Assembly: GCA_021828295.1 (NCBI GenBank)
Contig: JAKASF010000002.1
Span: 407 to 64,406 of the forward strand
Length of the DNA: 64,000 nt
Direction: 5' to 3'
Source of the DNA: Candidatus Micrarchaeota archaeon
GTDB taxonomy: Archaea > Micrarchaeota > Micrarchaeia > Micrarchaeales > CABMGC01
The notes beneath the pieces are model-generated. The model was not told where the DNA came from. It saw only the letters and a program-made list of their open reading frames with translations, and searched no databases. The position numbers and the translations under genes were made by a program. Below, one piece after another: positions 35,681 to 52,523 of the stretch (position 1 is the stretch's first letter; every line of letters starts with the position of its first letter).

Positions 35681-36658
35681 GTGTCGTTTCCTGGAGAAAG
35701 AATTTATTCCCTGGATGAACAAAAAGACATGCTCTCCAGTATTGAAAAGAGCCGCATGATGCCAACTAAGTACGCTTATTTCGGCATAGGAGCGAAGCGG
35801 TGGATAAACATTGCGCGATCCAGGCTTAATGCAAGCGGGAAGGGAATCAACATACTTGAGCGCGTACTCCTGACGCAGAAGGCAGGAAGCATATTTGACG
35901 CGCTTGGGTTTTATGGATATAGAAACTTCAGCCTTATGGATCTTGGATGCGGCGATGGATCTCCGTTATATCCATTGCTACACTACCTGAGAAACGAGCT
36001 GCCGAAGAGCGGGGTCAGATACAATCCAATAGACATAAGCCCAGATATGCTGCATGCTGCTTCGAAGAACGTAAGCGAAGGTTTCTCTGCGTTCGGCAAG
36101 CAGAACAAGTGGGATTTCGACAAGGGTCCTTTCAGGCATCTGACAAAGAAGCTTGAAAAACCACGCTTCGGGAATCTGTATCTCTTCCTAGGTTCGACGT
36201 TTGGCAACATGCCAGATCTCCACCGAACGTTAGTAAACATAAGGGAATCCATGGGGGCAAACGACTACCTGTTACTGGGCGTTGAGCAGATAGTGCCAGG
36301 GGAGATAGGGGGCATGCTGAGGGATTACTACAAAATCCGTGATGTTTTCGATCTTCTGTTCACCCCGTTTCAGTTCTTTGGTCTCAGGCATTCGGATGGA
36401 GAGTTCCGAGTGACATTCAACAGGGAGAAAAGCCAAGTAGAAGTTCACTTCACGCCGGACAAGGAGCTGAGGCTACAAACCCTATCTGGAAAGGCCACGC
36501 TGAAGAAGGGCAAGCCAATAATGCTAGCCAGAAGCGTGAAATTCACATCCGAACGCCTGGCGGGGCTGTTTTCAGAAGCAGGCTTCAGAACAGAGATGCT
36601 GACCACCTCGCGAGACAACAACTATGCGCTTGTGCTAGTCCAACCTGTCACGCTCTAG
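35681..36658 (+). CDS. SAM-dependent methyltransferase, EgtD-like (Methyltransf_33-type)
   Basis: LMDLGCGDGS gives the SAM motif I. YLFLGSTFGNM resembles the EgtD LGSxIGNF motif. It has a GTG start. Confidence 0.55.
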   Translation: MSFPGERIYSLDEQKDMLSSIEKSRMMPTKYAYFGIGAKRWINIARSRLNASGKGINILERVLLTQKAGSIFDALGFYGYRNFSLMDLGCGDGSPLYPLLHYLRNELPKSGVRYNPIDISPDMLHAASKNVSEGFSAFGKQNKWDFDKGPFRHLTKKLEKPRFGNLYLFLGSTFGNMPDLHRTLVNIRESMGANDYLLLGVEQIVPGEIGGMLRDYYKIRDVFDLLFTPFQFFGLRHSDGEFRVTFNREKSQVEVHFTPDKELRLQTLSGKATLKKGKPIMLARSVKFTSERLAGLFSEAGFRTEMLTTSRDNNYALVLVQPVTL

Positions 36659-37407: not shown

Positions 37408-37489
37408 AAATACTGGATTGTCGTAGGCACCAGAAAAACGGCGCAGCCAAATCTATTTAAATTTGGCAAGTGTCTCGTATATTGCGACC

Positions 37490-39739
37490 ATGATGCAGGA
37501 GACGATAACGCTTGAGCAGCTCATTTCCGAGCTCTTCGCGATCGGAAAGGAGAGCGTCGGCAGCGAGGAGCTGTTTGCGAAGTTCTCGGCGAAGCTGCAG
37601 TACATGGCAGGCATCGACTACATATCGATCAGGGAGGCCTACCAGGAGAAGGAGGAGCTCTCGGGCCTGGAGGAGTACGCCGTGAACACGGGCAAGCCCT
37701 ACATAGACAACAGGCTGAGCGGCTACTCCGCGTTCCCAGAGCTGATAAAGCACTACAACCTCGGGTTCAGGAGCTGCGCCCTGGTCCCGGTATCTCTGGA
37801 GGGCAAGCCCGTGATTGTCGCTACGTTCCTCTCCAGGCAGGAGGACAAGTTTGACGCCATGCTCATGCCCAGGCTCAGCCTTGCCGCAGAGCTGCTCGCG
37901 TACCAGGCCGTGGCCAAGGTGGAGAGGGAGAGGAGCATCAGCCTCGCAAAGTACTTCGACGCCGCATTCAACACCTACGCGCCGCAGATGCTGATCGACA
38001 GGAACGGGGCGATCGTAAGGTCCAACAAGAGCGCCAGCGGCCTCTTCGGGAAGACGCAGCGCGAGATGGTGGGCAGGAACGTGAGCGAGTTCTTCAGCAT
38101 CGACGCGACCATGCTCTACTCGCTGCGCGAAGGCTCCGTGGCCGAGGTTCGGGAGAGCGCTGAGCAGGGACGAATCTACAAGGCCAGTTCGGGAAAGATA
38201 AACGACAGGCTCTCGCACCTTCTGCTCTACGACGTCACCCAGCTCAAGGAGCTGGAGGAGAAGGTCAAGCTTGCTGAGATGGGCAGCGGCGAGACGTTCA
38301 TGCTTTTGGCAAAGGACACCACGGTGCTGTGGGCCAGCGCCAACGTGGGCAAGGTGCTCAAGCTTGGCATGGACGAGATTGTCGGAAGGAGGCTCATCGA
38401 CCTGGCGTACGAGGACAAGGAGCTGGCGGGAGAGATTGGTTCGCTGAACGACACGCTCGCGAAGCCGTTGCGCCTCAACGTTGGCAACGATGTCATAATC
38501 GACACGAAGGCTGTGCTGGTCAAGAACCAGTTTGGAGGCTTCTCCTGCATGCTCTCGAGCAACAACATCGAGAGGTACGTTGCCTCGATGCAGGGGGCGC
38601 TCGAGGGCCTGATAGAGACGGCGAGCGACGCCATATTCAGCATAGACTCGCTTGGCTACATCAAGTCCGTCAACTCGAGCGCCGAGCGCCTGCTCAAGTA
38701 TGGGGGCAACGAGCTCAGCGGCAGCGCGCTCGCATCGCTGTACGCCGACGAGGAGAGCCAGCAGAAGCTCAGCTCATCGCTCTCCCTGGCAAGGAGCACG
38801 GGCATGGTGGAGCACATGTACGTGAACCTTCGCCCGAAGGAGGCCGAGGTTCCGATACCGTGCGAGCAGTCGATAAGGAGCATGGTGGACAGCGACAACG
38901 GCCTCGTTGGCTACATGATAACTACGAAGGAGCTGGCCACGAAGATGAAGCTCGACCAGCTGGAGGAGGACACTGAGGAGCTGGGCAAGAGGCTGGAGGG
39001 GGTGAAGGAGGAGAGCGACCTCAAGACCCAGTTCTTCTACAACATCTCGCACGACCTCAAGACGCCGCTCACGAGCATCTACGGCTACGGGAAGCTGCTC
39101 GCGAACAGCAGCGAGGGCATAAGCCAGGACAACAGGGGCTACGCCGAGATAATAACCAAGGAGGCGGACAGGCTCCTGCAGCTGATAAACCAGATACTCG
39201 ATGTTGCGAAGCTCTCGTCCGGCAGGATAAAGCTCGACGTGCAGGACGTTGATTTCAACAGCCTGCTCAAGAACCCTGCCATAGGCTCGCTGATAGAGTT
39301 CGCTGAGAAGAAGGGGCTCGAGTTCAGGGTCGATGTCGATTACAGCGTGCCAGCGATCCAGGCCGACCCGAACAGGCTGATACAGGTGCTTGTCAACCTT
39401 ATCGGCAACGCGATAAAGTTCACAGAGAAGGGGAGCATAGGGGTAAGGATAGCCAGGGCTGGGAAGAAGAGCAAGTTCATCAGGGTGGAGGTAACTGATA
39501 CGGGAACTGGGATAAGCAAGGAGGACATGAAGAAGTTGTTCAGGAAGTTCTTCCAGCTGCAGCGCAAGGGGCTGATAATGCAGGAGGGATCCGGAACGGG
39601 ACTCGGGCTCTCGATAGCGAAGGAGATAGTCAACCTCCACGGGGGCAGGATAGGAGTGACCTCCGAAGCGGGCGTGGGCAGCACCTTCTGGTTCACGCTG
39701 CCGATAGCCGCCAGGGTTAAGAAGACGGCTGTGAAGTAG
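37490..39739 (+). CDS. multi-sensor (GAF/PAS-type) histidine kinase
   Basis: The HisKA H-box is FFYNISHDLKTPLTSI. HATPase_c N, G1 and G2 boxes are present (LIGNAIKFT, DTGTGI, GTGLGLSIAKEIV). The N-terminal ~480 aa carry PAS-like repeats. Confidence 0.85.
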   Translation: MMQETITLEQLISELFAIGKESVGSEELFAKFSAKLQYMAGIDYISIREAYQEKEELSGLEEYAVNTGKPYIDNRLSGYSAFPELIKHYNLGFRSCALVPVSLEGKPVIVATFLSRQEDKFDAMLMPRLSLAAELLAYQAVAKVERERSISLAKYFDAAFNTYAPQMLIDRNGAIVRSNKSASGLFGKTQREMVGRNVSEFFSIDATMLYSLREGSVAEVRESAEQGRIYKASSGKINDRLSHLLLYDVTQLKELEEKVKLAEMGSGETFMLLAKDTTVLWASANVGKVLKLGMDEIVGRRLIDLAYEDKELAGEIGSLNDTLAKPLRLNVGNDVIIDTKAVLVKNQFGGFSCMLSSNNIERYVASMQGALEGLIETASDAIFSIDSLGYIKSVNSSAERLLKYGGNELSGSALASLYADEESQQKLSSSLSLARSTGMVEHMYVNLRPKEAEVPIPCEQSIRSMVDSDNGLVGYMITTKELATKMKLDQLEEDTEELGKRLEGVKEESDLKTQFFYNISHDLKTPLTSIYGYGKLLANSSEGISQDNRGYAEIITKEADRLLQLINQILDVAKLSSGRIKLDVQDVDFNSLLKNPAIGSLIEFAEKKGLEFRVDVDYSVPAIQADPNRLIQVLVNLIGNAIKFTEKGSIGVRIARAGKKSKFIRVEVTDTGTGISKEDMKKLFRKFFQLQRKGLIMQEGSGTGLGLSIAKEIVNLHGGRIGVTSEAGVGSTFWFTLPIAARVKKTAVK

Positions 39740-39753
39740 CCGCGCGGCCAGGC

Positions 39754-41016
39754 TCACTTCAGTATCCTTTTCTCCATCTTCCAGCACCGCCCTATCCGCT
39801 CCGCTGTCTGCCTCTTCACCTCTTTGGGATCCGCCTGCAAGCGCGCAAGCCCGGCGCGAACGGATGCAGCGACGACAGCGGCGGCAACGTTCGACGCCAC
39901 CTTCACTGCGATCTTCCTCTCCAGAGGGTCAGGTAGTATCCTATCGATGCCCAGCTCCTTGCCCGTCGACTTGGCTATGGCCGTGGCGGCGGCCTCGAGT
40001 ATCTCGTAGTTCAGGCCCCTGGCCCTAGCGTCGAGCAGGCCGCGCATTATGCTTGGAAACGCGAGAACGTTGTTGACCTGGTTCGGTGTGTCGCTCCTGC
40101 CTGTTGCCGCGATGAATGCCCCGGCGGCCTTCGCTTCCTCGTACTCGATCTCTGGCTCCGGGTTCGCGAGCGCGAAGACGATAGGCTTTGCGCCCATCTT
40201 TGCGATCGTCTCCTTTGTGAACATGCCCTTCTTCGAGACGCCTATGAGGACGTCTGCACCGCGAACAGCTTCGTCCAGCGTTCCCTGCAGTCTCTCTGCA
40301 TTGGTCGCGCTCGCTATCTCTTCCTTGAACTCGTTCATGTTATCGGGCCTGCCCTTGTAGATGGTGCCGGCGCTGTCGACAACAAGCAGATTCTTGAAGC
40401 CCGCGTGGGAGAGCAGGCGCACTATGCCCAGGCCTGCGGAGCCGGCCCCGTTTATCACTATCCTCGCGTCCTTCCCCTTCTCGGCGAGCTTGAGCGAGTT
40501 GAGCAGCGCGGCCAGGACCACCACCCCCGTTCCCTGCTGGTCGTCGTGGAAGACTGGTATGTCCAGGCTCTTGGAGAGCGCGTCTACGATCCTGAACGAC
40601 TTCGGAGACTCGATGTCCTCGATGTTTATCGCTCCGAACGTGGGTGCTATCTCGACCACGAGCCTCACTATCTCCGCTTCGTCCTTGGTGGCTATGCACA
40701 GGGGCACCGCGTCGACGCCGCCGAACTTCTTGAAGAGTATGGCCTTGCCCTCCATCACCGGCAGGCCTGCCTGCGGACCTATGTCCCCGAGGCCCAGCAC
40801 CCTGGTGCCATCAGAGACTATGGCAATGGTGTTGCCCTTGCTTGTGTACTCGTAAGCTCCAGCGGGGTTCTCCTTTATAGCGCTTGAGACGAACGCCACC
40901 CCTGGCGTGTAGAATGTAGAGAGCTCGTCCCTTGTAGAGAGCGGCGCCTTCGACACTATCTCGTACTTGCCCTTCCTGTTCTTGTGCTCTTCTAGTGCCT
41001 TGTCCTCGCTTATCAA
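39754..41016 (-). CDS. NAD(P)-dependent malic enzyme
   Basis: YTPGVA, GLGDIGPQAGLPVMEGK and INGAGSAG (Rossmann fold) are present. The protein is 420 aa. Confidence 0.9.
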   Translation of the reverse strand: MISEDKALEEHKNRKGKYEIVSKAPLSTRDELSTFYTPGVAFVSSAIKENPAGAYEYTSKGNTIAIVSDGTRVLGLGDIGPQAGLPVMEGKAILFKKFGGVDAVPLCIATKDEAEIVRLVVEIAPTFGAINIEDIESPKSFRIVDALSKSLDIPVFHDDQQGTGVVVLAALLNSLKLAEKGKDARIVINGAGSAGLGIVRLLSHAGFKNLLVVDSAGTIYKGRPDNMNEFKEEIASATNAERLQGTLDEAVRGADVLIGVSKKGMFTKETIAKMGAKPIVFALANPEPEIEYEEAKAAGAFIAATGRSDTPNQVNNVLAFPSIMRGLLDARARGLNYEILEAAATAIAKSTGKELGIDRILPDPLERKIAVKVASNVAAAVVAASVRAGLARLQADPKEVKRQTAERIGRCWKMEKRILK

Positions 41017-41042: not shown

Positions 41043-42128
41043 TCACTGCGGTATCAGCGCAGCGCACGCATTGGGGATCAGCCTCTCGAAACTGTAGGAG
41101 GCGTTAAGTACGCTGTAGTTCAGTCCGGTGAATATGCCGGTATATGTGATATTGCGCAGGAAAGCGGAGTTGGAGACGTTGATTATTGCCAGGAGGGCGA
41201 TGCCCGTCGATCCCGGGTCCGCGGCCGTGGTAGAGTAGGTGATGAGAACGTTGTCCTTGTTGCTCGTGCTGCTCTCGTTTATGCTCATCTTTGTGGGTGT
41301 GCTGTAGCTCACGTTGTAGTACGAGACGGGTGCGGGTGGCTGCGTGTGTGCATGGTTGTAGGTCTTGTAGGTCTGGTTGTAGAGAGAGGGAGTGCAGTTG
41401 TAGTCCCTGGCGTACAGCGACCTGAGGCCGTTCATGAGCTCCCCTGGCCCTGTCTTGTTCATGAGCTGCAGGGCCTGCTGGAACGTCACCGAGGTGTTGT
41501 TCTGCGCGACAGTTGTTGTGAGCGTGCTAGAGAGCGTAGATGAGCCCGACGAGATCGTGGTGGGCGAGCCGCCGCTCGCGGGGCCTATGTTTAGCAGGCT
41601 TGAGGGATTGAGCAGCGTGACGCTGGGGCTTATCGAGATGCCGAGCGCAGATGGCAGCGGCGTCAGCTCGATTGTGGCTCCGGTGTTGCTGCTCGAGACC
41701 AGCCTTATGTTGATATTGGCAGCGTGGGAGCCGTCGGTGCTCACGTTCAGGCTCGACTCCGGAGTGAGCGAGAACGAGACTACGGGCCCGTACAGCACGG
41801 GCACGCTGGTTATGTAGAACGACGCGCCGCTTGGCGAGGTCGACTGCAGGTCGAGAGCCGCAGTGCTCCCGTTGTATATCTTTAGGAACTGGGTCTGGTT
41901 GTAGGCGAGCGAGAGGCTCCTGGCAGAGGTTATGGTCACGACCGAAGGGACGAGAACACCGTAGACCAGGTAGACAGCGACCAGCACGACAACGAGCGCT
42001 ATTATCTGCTTAAGCGACAGCCTCCAGGCTGGCAGCGACAGTCCCTTGTTAGCCGAGGTCTTCAACCGAGCACCGCTTCTGCAAGGTAGTGATTCCACAA
42101 CAAAGAATATTATAGTTTCGTTGCCCAT
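41043..42128 (-). CDS. secreted/anchored Ser-Thr-Asn-rich protein with many N-x-S/T sequons
   Basis: One N-terminal TM is present (IIALVVVLVAVYLVYGVLV), followed by a low-complexity ectodomain. The start is uncertain, with candidates ATG 42128 and TTG 42065. Track start 42206 would overlap the divergent regulator gene. Confidence 0.5.
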   Translation of the reverse strand: MGNETIIFFVVESLPCRSGARLKTSANKGLSLPAWRLSLKQIIALVVVLVAVYLVYGVLVPSVVTITSARSLSLAYNQTQFLKIYNGSTAALDLQSTSPSGASFYITSVPVLYGPVVSFSLTPESSLNVSTDGSHAANINIRLVSSSNTGATIELTPLPSALGISISPSVTLLNPSSLLNIGPASGGSPTTISSGSSTLSSTLTTTVAQNNTSVTFQQALQLMNKTGPGELMNGLRSLYARDYNCTPSLYNQTYKTYNHAHTQPPAPVSYYNVSYSTPTKMSINESSTSNKDNVLITYSTTAADPGSTGIALLAIINVSNSAFLRNITYTGIFTGLNYSVLNASYSFERLIPNACAALIPQ

Positions 42129-42153
42129 TACTCTCGTTGCGACCAGTGGCTTC

Positions 42154-43359
42154 ATGAAGGGCATCGAAGATGCGGAATCGGACGTGATGTCGCTCATCAA
42201 CGACAAGCAGGAAGTTACCTACAACGAGCTCAAGGACTTCGCGGCCTCGCAGGAGATAGACGGTGACACGCTCAAACGCGCGCTAGCAGAGCTAGTCAAG
42301 GCGAGCGCGCTTGCGACAAGGAGCAGCGGGGGCATACCCACCTATTACATGCTCCAGGAGCCGCAGCGCATAAAACGCGTATTCGTCATAGAGGACGACC
42401 AGAACATAAACAAGCTGATGGCGATAGCGCTGGGGCAGGGCTACGACGTAACCCAGTTCTACGACGGTAAGGAGGCGATGGAGAAGGTAAGGTACCAGAA
42501 ACCAGATCTTGTGGTGCTCGACCTCATGCTTCCCGGCATGGACGGCCTCGAGGTCTGCCAGACGATAAAGAAGGACCCGCTGCTGCGCGACATTACTGTC
42601 ATAATAGTAAGCGCCCTGGAAGCCACCACCAACAGGTTCAAGGGCATAAAGTACGGGGCAGACTACTACATCAAGAAGCCGTTTGACCCCGACGAGCTCC
42701 GCGGACTTGTCACCATCTTCCTGAAGAAGAAGGGGAAGAAGTTCGACGCGCTGATAGACCTGCCCAACGAGGAGCGCATAAGCGACAGCGTCGAGAGGGC
42801 TGTGAAGGGATCGGATTCCGATTACGAGATAGGAAGATTGCGGGTCGAGGGCCTGGCGAGCTTCGCCAGCAAGTTCGGCAACGAGGCAGGCATAACGATA
42901 CTGAGGCTTGCATCGCAGCTGCTGCAGGACAAGGTCAAGGGCAAGGACGTTGAGGGGAGCACATTCGTCGGCTTCCTGAACGGCGACGACTTCGTCATAG
43001 CGGGCAGCAAGAAGAACGTGGACCGCATGGTCGAGAGCATAAAGTCGGAGTTCCAGGCGGTCTTGCCGTTCATCTACCAGAGCGAGGGCTACAAGCCGAT
43101 AGAGAAGGGCATAGAGGACATGTACGCGGTGCAGAACCCCGCGCTGGCGCTCGGGTACACTGAGATAAAGCGCGAGGCGCTCGCGGCCAGGCGCGCAGAG
43201 GTCATAAAGGAGAAGCGCAAGGACGAGATAGGCTCATACACGTACGACGAGCTGCGGCGCATGCTCGGCAGCGAGAACCTTGACATAACGATAACAAGGG
43301 ACACGAACGGGGTCAAGCTCTCTGTGGGAAAGAGGGCTGATTCAGAGAAAGAGGAGTAG
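42154..43359 (+). CDS. response regulator: wHTH-like N-terminus, receiver domain and degenerate GGDEF-like domain
   Basis: The REC domain reads VFVIEDD...LVVLDLMLPGMDG...KKPF. The downstream domain aligns to the diguanylate cyclase pattern (DALIDLPNEE, ...SKFGNEAGITILRLAS..., GFLNGDDFVIAG in place of RxGGDEF). Confidence 0.75.
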   Translation: MKGIEDAESDVMSLINDKQEVTYNELKDFAASQEIDGDTLKRALAELVKASALATRSSGGIPTYYMLQEPQRIKRVFVIEDDQNINKLMAIALGQGYDVTQFYDGKEAMEKVRYQKPDLVVLDLMLPGMDGLEVCQTIKKDPLLRDITVIIVSALEATTNRFKGIKYGADYYIKKPFDPDELRGLVTIFLKKKGKKFDALIDLPNEERISDSVERAVKGSDSDYEIGRLRVEGLASFASKFGNEAGITILRLASQLLQDKVKGKDVEGSTFVGFLNGDDFVIAGSKKNVDRMVESIKSEFQAVLPFIYQSEGYKPIEKGIEDMYAVQNPALALGYTEIKREALAARRAEVIKEKRKDEIGSYTYDELRRMLGSENLDITITRDTNGVKLSVGKRADSEKEE

Positions 43360-43370
43360 AAGGGAAAGGC

Positions 43371-43652
43371 TTACCTTCTTCGCTTCCTAGACATGCGCTT
43401 TGATGCGCGTTTCGCCGACGCTTTCCTCGAGCCTTTTCTGGGCCTCCCGGAGGAGGTCTCGGCCCTTGTGTACTTCTCGGATTCCAGAAGCTCGACCACG
43501 TGCGACTCGTCGGTGGGCCTGCTCTCGCCGGCGCTGTCGAGTATCGCCTGGCTCTGCGCCCCGCCTATCTGGAGCAGCTCGTTTATCTTCTGCGACCTGA
43601 TGAGTGCCTCGAGCCTCTTGTTGCTCGCAGAACGCCCTGATCTCTTGGCCAT
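43371..43652 (-). CDS. small basic hypothetical protein (93 aa)
   Basis: The ORF has a Lys/Arg-rich C-terminus (KGSRKASAKRASKRMSRKRRR). Confidence 0.45.
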   Translation of the reverse strand: MAKRSGRSASNKRLEALIRSQKINELLQIGGAQSQAILDSAGESRPTDESHVVELLESEKYTRAETSSGRPRKGSRKASAKRASKRMSRKRRR

Positions 43653-52401: not shown

Positions 52402-52523
52402 GGCGGGGTAGCTCAGCCTGGTTAGAGCGCTAGACTCATATGCTAAGCACTATGAGTGGCGAGCAGTTTTGCGATGAGCGCTAAGAAATCTAGAGGTCGA
52501 GGGTTCAAATCACTCCCCCGCCA
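52402..52523 (+). tRNA. tRNA with anticodon CAT (elongator Met or Ile2) carrying a ~47-nt intron at the canonical 37/38 position
   Basis: Exons fold as GGCGGGG-TA-GCTC-AGCCTGGTTA-GAGC-G-CTAGA-CTCATA|intron 52441-52487|A-TCTAG-AGGTC-GAGGG-TTCAAAT-CACTC-CCCCGCC-A. There is one G-A mismatch in the T stem. Confidence 0.85.

Follow-up and report, generated by a model that had tools for sequence, protein, structure and literature searches.

The question raised by this locus is whether an archaeal response regulator can carry a genuine GGDEF domain and, if so, what such a domain would do there. The gene concerned lies at positions 42154-43359 (+ strand) of the window, by which we mean the whole 64,000-nucleotide (nt) stretch of contig JAKASF010000002.1 (assembly GCA_021828295.1, Candidatus Micrarchaeota archaeon) that was analyzed, and it encodes a product of 401 amino acids (aa) according to the open reading frame (ORF) list and its translation. 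The source genome, that of a DPANN archaeon, comprises 0.77 Mb in 32 contigs and is 88% complete. A preliminary description of this DNA, made by eye, had recognized a receiver (REC) domain and a GGDEF-like region in the protein. Both are present, but an N-terminal winged helix (residues 1-66) had been missed, and the layout is winged helix - REC - GGDEF-fold domain, followed by a C-terminal tail. The plain PleD/WspR arrangement that had been proposed does not hold, as the winged helix precedes the REC domain and the C-terminal third of the GGDEF domain is remodeled. As argued below, the output domain is a true GGDEF domain that has almost certainly lost diguanylate cyclase activity, and it belongs to a regulator that is native to this archaeal lineage and is the only receiver protein detected in its genome.

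The longest ORF for the regulator opens at a TTG codon at 42046, whereas the conserved start is the ATG at 42154. Because all of the orthologues begin at this Met (MKGIED...) and a Shine-Dalgarno (SD)-like element, GCGACC, is located 15 nt 5' of it, the ATG was accepted as the start. Public data contain >120 orthologue clusters with 62-88% identity, and those bearing names are response regulators of Candidatus Micrarchaeota, Micrarchaeaceae, or 'Marsarchaeota'. The mean column identity in the orthologue alignment is 69% over the whole length of the protein, which is indicative of very strong purifying selection across its entire length. In the full-length AlphaFold model (predicted local distance difference test [pLDDT] 70.5), residues 1-66 (42154-42351, + strand) show the topology of a winged helix (helix, strand, helix, helix, strand, strand), and the best match to the profile of this segment is CodY, through its winged helix that binds DNA (E 6.5e-4), followed by BlaI, MecI, and TFE. 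The micrarchaeal winged helix and CodY have the stretch L..LE.AG.I.SRS.G in common, and Pfam yields weak matches to Penicillinase_R, TrmB, MarR, and ArsR over the same residues. By these similarities, the segment is a winged helix of the DNA-binding type. The receiver (residues 76-185; 42379-42708, + strand) passes the Pfam gathering threshold of PF00072 (94.9 bits versus a cut-off of 30.2, E 4e-27), and it was correctly described as canonical: D81, D123, S153, and K175 are invariant across 46 orthologues, while D82 is Asp in 44 of them and Glu in the other 2. It therefore retains every residue required for phosphorylation, with D123 (codon 42520-42522) as the phospho-acceptor. The nearest receiver models are those of the OmpR/PhoB type and of PleD, and the alpha4-beta5-alpha5 face is almost invariant (R161-K166, G168-Y172, and K175-F177).

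The output region (residues ~197-340; 42742-43173, + strand) begins with the entry motif FDxLxDLP. Taken alone, its Pfam match to GGDEF (PF00990, residues 197-304) falls below the gathering threshold (13.6 bits versus 23.8, E 0.058), although the register of this match is the same as the one proposed by eye. Five further results back it. First, 32 of the 46 orthologues match PF00990 at E < 0.1, the best of them at E 6.7e-6. Second, a phmmer search with residues 190-401 against 1.84 billion representative proteins returned nothing but GGDEF proteins outside of the regulator's own family (n=25, E 3e-9 to 1e-3); when 13 of these GGDEF matches were scanned with Pfam, 12 scored above the cut-off and one, P0146, which is itself degenerate, scored below it. 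Third, searches against the PDB were performed domain by domain, since receiver matches dominated those made with the full-length profile, and a profile of 18 C-terminal halves had GGDEF domains as 9 of its 10 matches (best 6eib, E 6e-4). Fourth, hhalign aligned the family profile with an alignment of a bacterial GGDDF clade, described below, at 99.2% probability (E 1.7e-19, 117 columns). Fifth, the C-terminal half as modeled by AlphaFold (pLDDT 76.7, predicted template modeling score 0.72) had GGDEF domains as its top 26 Foldseek matches in the PDB, all with a probability of 1.0 and a target template modeling score of about 0.5-0.55. The motif correspondences drawn by eye were each reproduced in the hidden Markov model and profile alignments, in which FDxLxDLPNE pairs with DELTGLPN, RVEGLASFASKFGNEAGITIL with DIDNFKLINDQFGHDKGDEVL, and FLNGDDF with RVGGEEF. 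A chance resemblance to GGDEF can be rejected, as can assignments to Cas10, Thg1, or class III cyclases, with Thg1 appearing in the Foldseek ranking only beneath the 26 GGDEF matches. By profile and predicted structure, the output region is thus a true, albeit degenerate, GGDEF-fold domain.

The degeneracy reaches the positions that in a diguanylate cyclase bind metal, recognize guanine, and form the I-site. Residues were counted in the 46 orthologues after alignment to 6eib and are given with PleD numbering. The metal ligand D327 is replaced by R230 (orthologues R36, K4, G2, M2, H1, T1), which accords with the earlier reading of RVE in place of the DxD. K332, the canonical Lys of the DxDxFK motif and a phosphate contact, is replaced by A235 (A38, S3, G2, L2, V1), while the guanine-recognition residues N335 and D344 are replaced by A238 (A44, V2) and I247 (I34, V7, M5), respectively. 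The GG(D/E)EF signature survives as the remnant NGDDF (residues 276-280; 42979-42993, + strand), as had been noted, with column counts of N42/D3/C1, G40/S6, D38/N5/E2/S1, D45/E1, and F46, and it departs from the cyclase signature [G/A/S]G[D/E]E[F/Y]. In distant family members the same position reads NSSSF, KNGEF, RNGEF, GENAF, GESSF, or GDSFF with the rest of the protein kept, such that only the Phe is invariant. An RxxD I-site was not found either; the place expected for it (about residues 264-270) varies among the family members and contains gaps in the alignments. Other positions are invariant throughout the family, namely F-D-x-L-x-D-L-P at the entry, Q309, and a number of Phe residues in the core, as well as R-L-x-S on helix alpha2, after which come a nearly invariant Q-x-x-Q and an invariant Asp. 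This pattern of conservation argues that the fold has been retained for a structural or binding role, rather than for catalysis. The part that follows (residues 341-401; 43174-43356, + strand) is predicted by AlphaFold to form a helix, a second helix, and a beta-hairpin, and contains YTYEELR...LDITITRD; it is strongly conserved within the regulator family and was left unaligned to the bacterial clade by hhalign. It had been suggested earlier that the domain might be catalytically altered or purely regulatory, and the losses listed here agree with this: the output domain is, judging from its residues, almost certainly no diguanylate cyclase.

The nearest relatives of the domain outside of its own family are bacterial. 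All 25 of the non-family phmmer matches belong to a single bacterial GGDEF clade, with GH[ILV]GGD[DHS]F present in 24 of them. This clade is marked by an (N/S)PLTxLPGN entry motif, DxDxFKxxNDxYG, GH(I/V)GGDDF, and a long Y..ED...GYI...DR.G....FP stretch after helix alpha3, and its members (P0138, P0142-P0165; for example, P0142 from Chloroflexota and P0147 from Nitrospiraceae) include REC-, HAMP-, dCache-, and EAL-CBS fusions. No named subfamily was found for it, as NCBIfam offers generic GGDEF models only, and both the Pfam and NCBIfam GGDEF models match it over only about their first 100 positions; it seems to be a distinct clade, apparently without a name. The REC-GGDEF proteins of this clade resemble the regulator in their PL..LP entry, in the F(V/I)G.(I/L).GDDFV strand, and in F..(V/I)(L/I)P..Y after alpha3, and they align with it from the receiver through the linker and into the GGDEF domain, of which the initial two thirds are covered. 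Unlike the regulator, most of the aligned proteins retain DxDxFK, ND, GFxxGD of the alpha1-alpha2 loop, and GGDDF, and judging from these motifs they are probably enzymes, although a few members, such as P0146, P0151, and P0156, are degenerate. They also lack an N-terminal winged helix, and their C-terminal third differs from that of the regulator. In BLASTP comparisons with three bacterial REC-GGDEF proteins (E 4e-41, 5e-37, and 3e-30; 27-30% identity), the alignments ran unbroken from residue 74, 77, or 85 to residues 311-314, spanning receiver, linker, and GGDEF domain. The best pairwise match (E 4e-41) is P0146 (L024:67-891), a 274-aa protein consisting of REC and a GGDEF domain of this clade; its GGDEF domain has decayed separately, with GHLGDNTF as its signature and no DxD. 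Lateral transfer, one of the explanations first offered, is therefore the likely source of the REC-GGDEF part, given the contiguous alignments (E 5e-37 to 4e-41); this origin is drawn from match ranking and profile comparison, with the degenerate domain sitting on a long branch. On the simplest reading, a REC-GGDEF gene of the bacterial GGDDF clade would have been acquired as one unit; a winged helix would then have been added at its N-terminus, the catalytic residues would have disappeared, and everything beyond residue ~315 would have been rebuilt.

However bacterial its source may have been, the regulator has become an established archaeal gene. Among 401 sampled genomes of the phylum, 188 matched the output-domain profile: 165 of the 178 from the regulator's own order, nearly always as a single copy, and 23 of the 223 from outside of it. 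A survey of REC domains covered 87 genomes, namely the genomes from the order with a completeness of ≥90%, to which the window's own (88%) was added. REC was present in 84 of these and was found exactly once in 78, directly beside the GGDEF-like match. The genomic context is conserved as well, since 18 of 20 distinct orthologous loci have a histidine kinase gene upstream in the same orientation, and synteny also extends to archaeal genes such as those for fibrillarin and the Lhr helicase. From these results, we conclude that the regulator is a genuine, native, and vertically inherited core gene of its micrarchaeal order.

The histidine kinase of the window is located at 37463-39739 (+ strand). 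The preliminary description had placed a multi-PAS kinase 2.4 kb upstream of the regulator; the kinase is real. Its architecture is (GAF)-PAS-PAS-HisKA-HATPase_c by Pfam, with two PAS domains, a weak GAF match, and strong matches for HisKA (E 7e-20) and HATPase_c (E 7e-30), which together form the kinase core (residues ~510-758). No hydrophobic segment was found in its sequence, so it is probably a cytoplasmic sensor. To place the pair within the genome, we relied upon six-frame searches with Pfam models at E ≤ 1, a procedure that does yield matches in named control genomes. Exactly one REC domain was detected, that of the regulator, and exactly one HisKA domain, that of the kinase; thus, the regulator and the PAS kinase constitute the sole two-component pair. 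The same searches, which include those for EAL, HD-GYP, and PilZ genes that had been recommended earlier, gave no match to GGDEF (PF00990), EAL, PilZ, HD_5 (the HD-GYP type), or DAC in this 88%-complete genome, it being understood that the regulator's own degenerate GGDEF domain escapes the genome-wide search at this threshold. 5' of the kinase, at 35681-36658 (+ strand), is a gene for a histidine-specific S-adenosylmethionine-dependent methyltransferase (Methyltransf_33, EgtD/EasF-like, E 2e-27), where the orthologous loci that were inspected have fibrillarin instead.

Between the kinase and the regulator is a divergent gene encoding a single-pass membrane protein, which we refer to as MEM (41043-42065, - strand). 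Its ORF remains open to 42206, with the likely start being the TTG at 42065. The 387-aa ORF contains one hydrophobic segment, is rich in Ser (16.5%), Thr (12.1%), and Asn (8.4%), and has 15 N-x-S/T sequons for N-glycosylation, 14 of which lie beyond the membrane segment. Sequence searches of Pfam, NCBIfam, and the PDB did not return a family match for MEM, yet a MEM homologue is present between kinase and regulator, divergent from the latter, in 14 of the 20 loci. MEM is lineage-specific and a candidate for a regulated surface protein. In the window's own genome, the kinase and MEM genes are separated by a malic enzyme gene (39754-41016, - strand; Pfam malic and Malic_M), while the two are directly adjacent in L004 and L023 of the same genus and in the remaining loci that contained both (L001, L002, L005, L007, L009, and others); the malic enzyme gene looks like a local insertion or rearrangement. 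On the other side, convergent with the regulator, a gene at 43371-43652 (- strand) encodes a small, very basic protein (93 aa, isoelectric point 11.5) with an Arg/Lys-rich tail. Its homologues occupy the same position in several loci, and searches of the same three resources were likewise without a family match. Farther away, at 52402-52523 (+ strand), there is a 122-nt Rfam tRNA match that was not called by ARAGORN. Probably an archaeal tRNA with an intron, it adjoins a tRNA-His on the opposite strand.

Comparison of orthologous loci also pointed to a putative promoter and ribosome-binding site ahead of the regulator (42099-42144, + strand), consisting of a purine-rich stretch, the TATA-like box AATATTATA (42106-42114), and the SD-like GCGACC (42139-42144). 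An AT-rich TATA-like box with purines before it was recognized by eye 38-48 nt 5' of the start in 19 of 21 upstream regions; across all 21, a pattern scan landed on this box in 15, landed on a different AT run farther upstream in 5, and returned nothing in 1. An SD-like element is located 9-16 nt 5' of the start in all 21. We infer that this region is the promoter of the regulator, and beyond the TATA-like box and the SD-like element no shared motif was found in the 21 upstream regions. Within the regulator's own genus, the start of the regulator gene and that of the divergent MEM gene are only about 90 nt apart, and the nearly symmetric AAAG-AATATTATA-GTTTC at 42099-42122 is seemingly common to the two genes; it could represent a two-way promoter in which a TATA box is flanked on both sides by transcription factor B recognition elements (BRE-TATA-BRE). 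More distant relatives have two separate AT-rich boxes.

How, then, might the regulator work? We favor, with moderate confidence, the view that it is a phosphorylation-controlled switch in which the dead GGDEF domain serves as a non-catalytic dimerization or regulatory module. The PAS kinase would sense a cytoplasmic cue and phosphorylate D123, and phosphorylation would then alter the oligomeric state through the alpha4-beta5-alpha5 face, as it does in OmpR/PhoB and in the receivers of WspR and PleD. The ancestors of the domain, being cyclases, had to pair up in order to act. Making no nucleotide itself, the dead GGDEF domain would be a scaffold that arranges the two N-terminal winged helices, and these would bind DNA or a partner protein, a candidate site being the short region (42060-42160) shared with the divergent MEM gene. 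Several observations weigh against this proposal. The full-length AlphaFold model is of moderate quality and is poor around receiver alpha4/alpha5 and the linker, so the proposed coupling across the receiver-GGDEF junction is without structural support. With a median net charge of -6 and an isoelectric point of 4.4, the winged helix is acidic, and no shared operator was found 5' of the regulator when 200-260 nt of upstream sequence were compared among the 21 loci; GC-rich palindromes upstream of the regulator were considered as an operator and rejected, as they occur in single loci only and are not conserved. Within the order, D279 is kept in 45 of 46 orthologues, E/D232 in 42 of 46, and the glycine of the FGxxxG loop, G242, in 45 of 46, and a residual metal or ligand site may persist there. 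Because the genome is 88% complete, the count of one receiver might also miss a gene, although a second REC gene is unlikely in light of the order-wide survey. Finally, function is inferred for all members of the family.

The foremost alternative is a role of the output domain in ligand sensing; ligand receptors are well known among GGDEF domains that have degenerated. In the present case the ligand might be a nucleotide (GTP, ATP, or a cyclic one, possibly the host's) or another small molecule that binds at the remodeled active-site face or at the conserved alpha2 patch, with ligand and phosphorylation jointly setting the output. The extreme conservation of the family would fit this reading, particularly that of the invariant polar residues R251, S254, Q255, Q258, and D259 on alpha2 and of Q309, as would the phosphate-loop remnant (D279, E/D232, and G242) that is kept within the order. 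The GEDEF domain of Caulobacter PdeA (CC3396), which binds GTP, offers a comparable case, as do PelD and PopA, and inactive degenerate GGDEF motifs can serve as binding domains (PMC8835794). However, the I-site is missing, both of the guanine-recognition positions are hydrophobic (A238 and I247), the metal-binding Asp is replaced, and the acidic residues are lost in distant family members. Moreover, our Pfam searches of the regulator's own genome uncovered no synthase or phosphodiesterase for cyclic di-GMP (c-di-GMP) or cyclic di-AMP and no PilZ protein at the threshold used. On balance, we regard a ligand sensor as unlikely, though a fair alternative.

A bolder reading concerns the only signaling pathway of these obligate episymbionts, of which co-cultures with a Thermoplasmatales host exist: the bacterial cyclase domain would have turned into a new module for sensing or partner binding. 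Its ligand, a metabolite or protein that might come from the host, would dock at the invariant polar alpha2 face (R251, S254, Q255, Q258, and D259) along with D279, E/D232, and Q309. Jointly with phosphorylation, this binding would steer the transcription of MEM, a predicted N-glycosylated surface protein, and thus host attachment. We consider this reading improbable. Still less probable is an enzyme of altered chemistry, in which D278/D279 and E232 would make a nucleotide product other than c-di-GMP, as had been entertained at the outset. The nearest bacterial relatives do pair GGDDF with the full catalytic set, D279 is nearly invariant in the order, and GGDDF variants can be active, as in GSU1937 of Geobacter (PMC8835794), a Hypr enzyme with which the literature on 'GGDDF' is concerned. 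Nevertheless, the first Gly of the signature is Asn in the regulator, and in GSU1937 a substitution within the Gly pair of this signature, G372A, which converts GGDDF to GADDF, abolished activity (PMC8835794). The equivalents of PleD D327, K332, N335, and D344 are all lost, distant orthologues carry NSSSF, GENAF, or GDSFF while keeping the rest of the protein, so the acidic motif residues are not maintained in the wider family, and neither a degrading enzyme nor a receptor for such a product was found in the genome by Pfam searches. A different nucleotide product is accordingly very unlikely. Lastly, a bacterial contaminant in the archaeal bin, or a gene that was transferred recently and sporadically and has no conserved role, might be suspected from the bacterial type of the REC-GGDEF part and from a 2018 census that left open whether such regulators are genuine archaeal proteins (PMC5847659), but we reject this with near certainty, as it is refuted by the distribution of the gene (165/178 genomes of the order, nearly always one copy, single-contig genomes included) and by its synteny with the kinase, fibrillarin, and Lhr helicase genes, while the conserved archaeal-type upstream region with its TATA-like box and SD-like element and the apparent intron-bearing tRNA in the window speak against it as well.

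The phosphorylation-controlled switch with a non-catalytic GGDEF module thus remains our preferred explanation. Its significance is in part corrective, as a tempting false lead is removed: there is no evidence here for c-di-GMP or another GGDEF-made messenger in archaea. In addition, the reduced genomes of these symbionts (0.6-1.2 Mb) have no two-component output besides the regulator, and the targets under its control are therefore probably important for the response of the symbionts to their surroundings.

With respect to known systems, parallels in domain order include WspR of Pseudomonas and PleD of Caulobacter, in which a GGDEF-fold domain likewise comes after a receiver; in the PDB, one of the best matches of the regulator is the receiver of PleD (E 2.5e-23), and WspR GGDEF structures are among its top Foldseek matches. 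Both WspR and PleD lack a winged helix and are active as cyclases; their GG(D/E)EF signature, their metal and guanine ligands, and their RxxD I-site have all been lost in the regulator. In terms of fate, the regulator resembles PopA, PelD, LapD, PdeA/CC3396, and GdpS, where the GGDEF fold likewise serves as a regulatory or binding module after the loss of catalysis. Even so, PopA and PelD bind c-di-GMP at the RxxD that the regulator lacks, PdeA binds GTP at a largely intact A-site whereas that of the regulator is not intact, and receptors of the PopA/PelD type operate within a c-di-GMP network of which our Pfam searches detected no component in the regulator's genome at E ≤ 1. Among archaea, LtrR of Methanococcoides and FilR1 of Methanosaeta are winged helix-turn-helix - REC proteins in which a winged helix of the DNA-binding type comes before the receiver, opposite to the arrangement in bacteria (PMC5847659). 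The regulator has the winged helix before the receiver as well, but LtrR and FilR1 are without a GGDEF-fold domain, and they are likened to it by layout only.

The comparison that bears most directly upon this locus is with the 2018 census itself. The first complete Micrarchaeota genome was reported there to hold a single two-component system, with 1 kinase and 1 helix-turn-helix (HTH)-containing regulator (Table 1 in Galperin, Makarova, Wolf, and Koonin 2018, J Bacteriol 200:e00681-17, PMC5847659), and 'WspR-like (REC + inactivated GGDEF)' regulators were listed for Ca. Micrarchaeum acidiphilum (ARMAN) (PMC5847659). Thus, the regulator is already known as a catalogue entry, and its architecture is not the unusual, unrecognized one for which the preliminary description had taken it. 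A full-text literature search did not find other papers on Micrarchaeota two-component proteins. The census devoted one sentence to the regulator, in which the donor clade, core status, neighborhood, and remodeled C-terminus do not appear, and it stated that whether such bacterial-type regulators are genuine or contamination remained to be determined (PMC5847659). Our analysis settles this question, in that the regulator with REC and a dead GGDEF domain is a genuine core gene and not contamination. It further adds the core status in the order, the bacterial sister clade, the likely acquisition of REC and GGDEF as a unit, the CodY-like winged helix, the kinase - MEM - regulator neighborhood, and the further decay of the signature in distant family members. 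The Ca. Micrarchaeum regulators of the census come from the same lineage, share the same architecture, and occur with one kinase and one regulator per genome; by their description and by the names of the orthologues, they very probably belong to the same orthologous family as the regulator described here.

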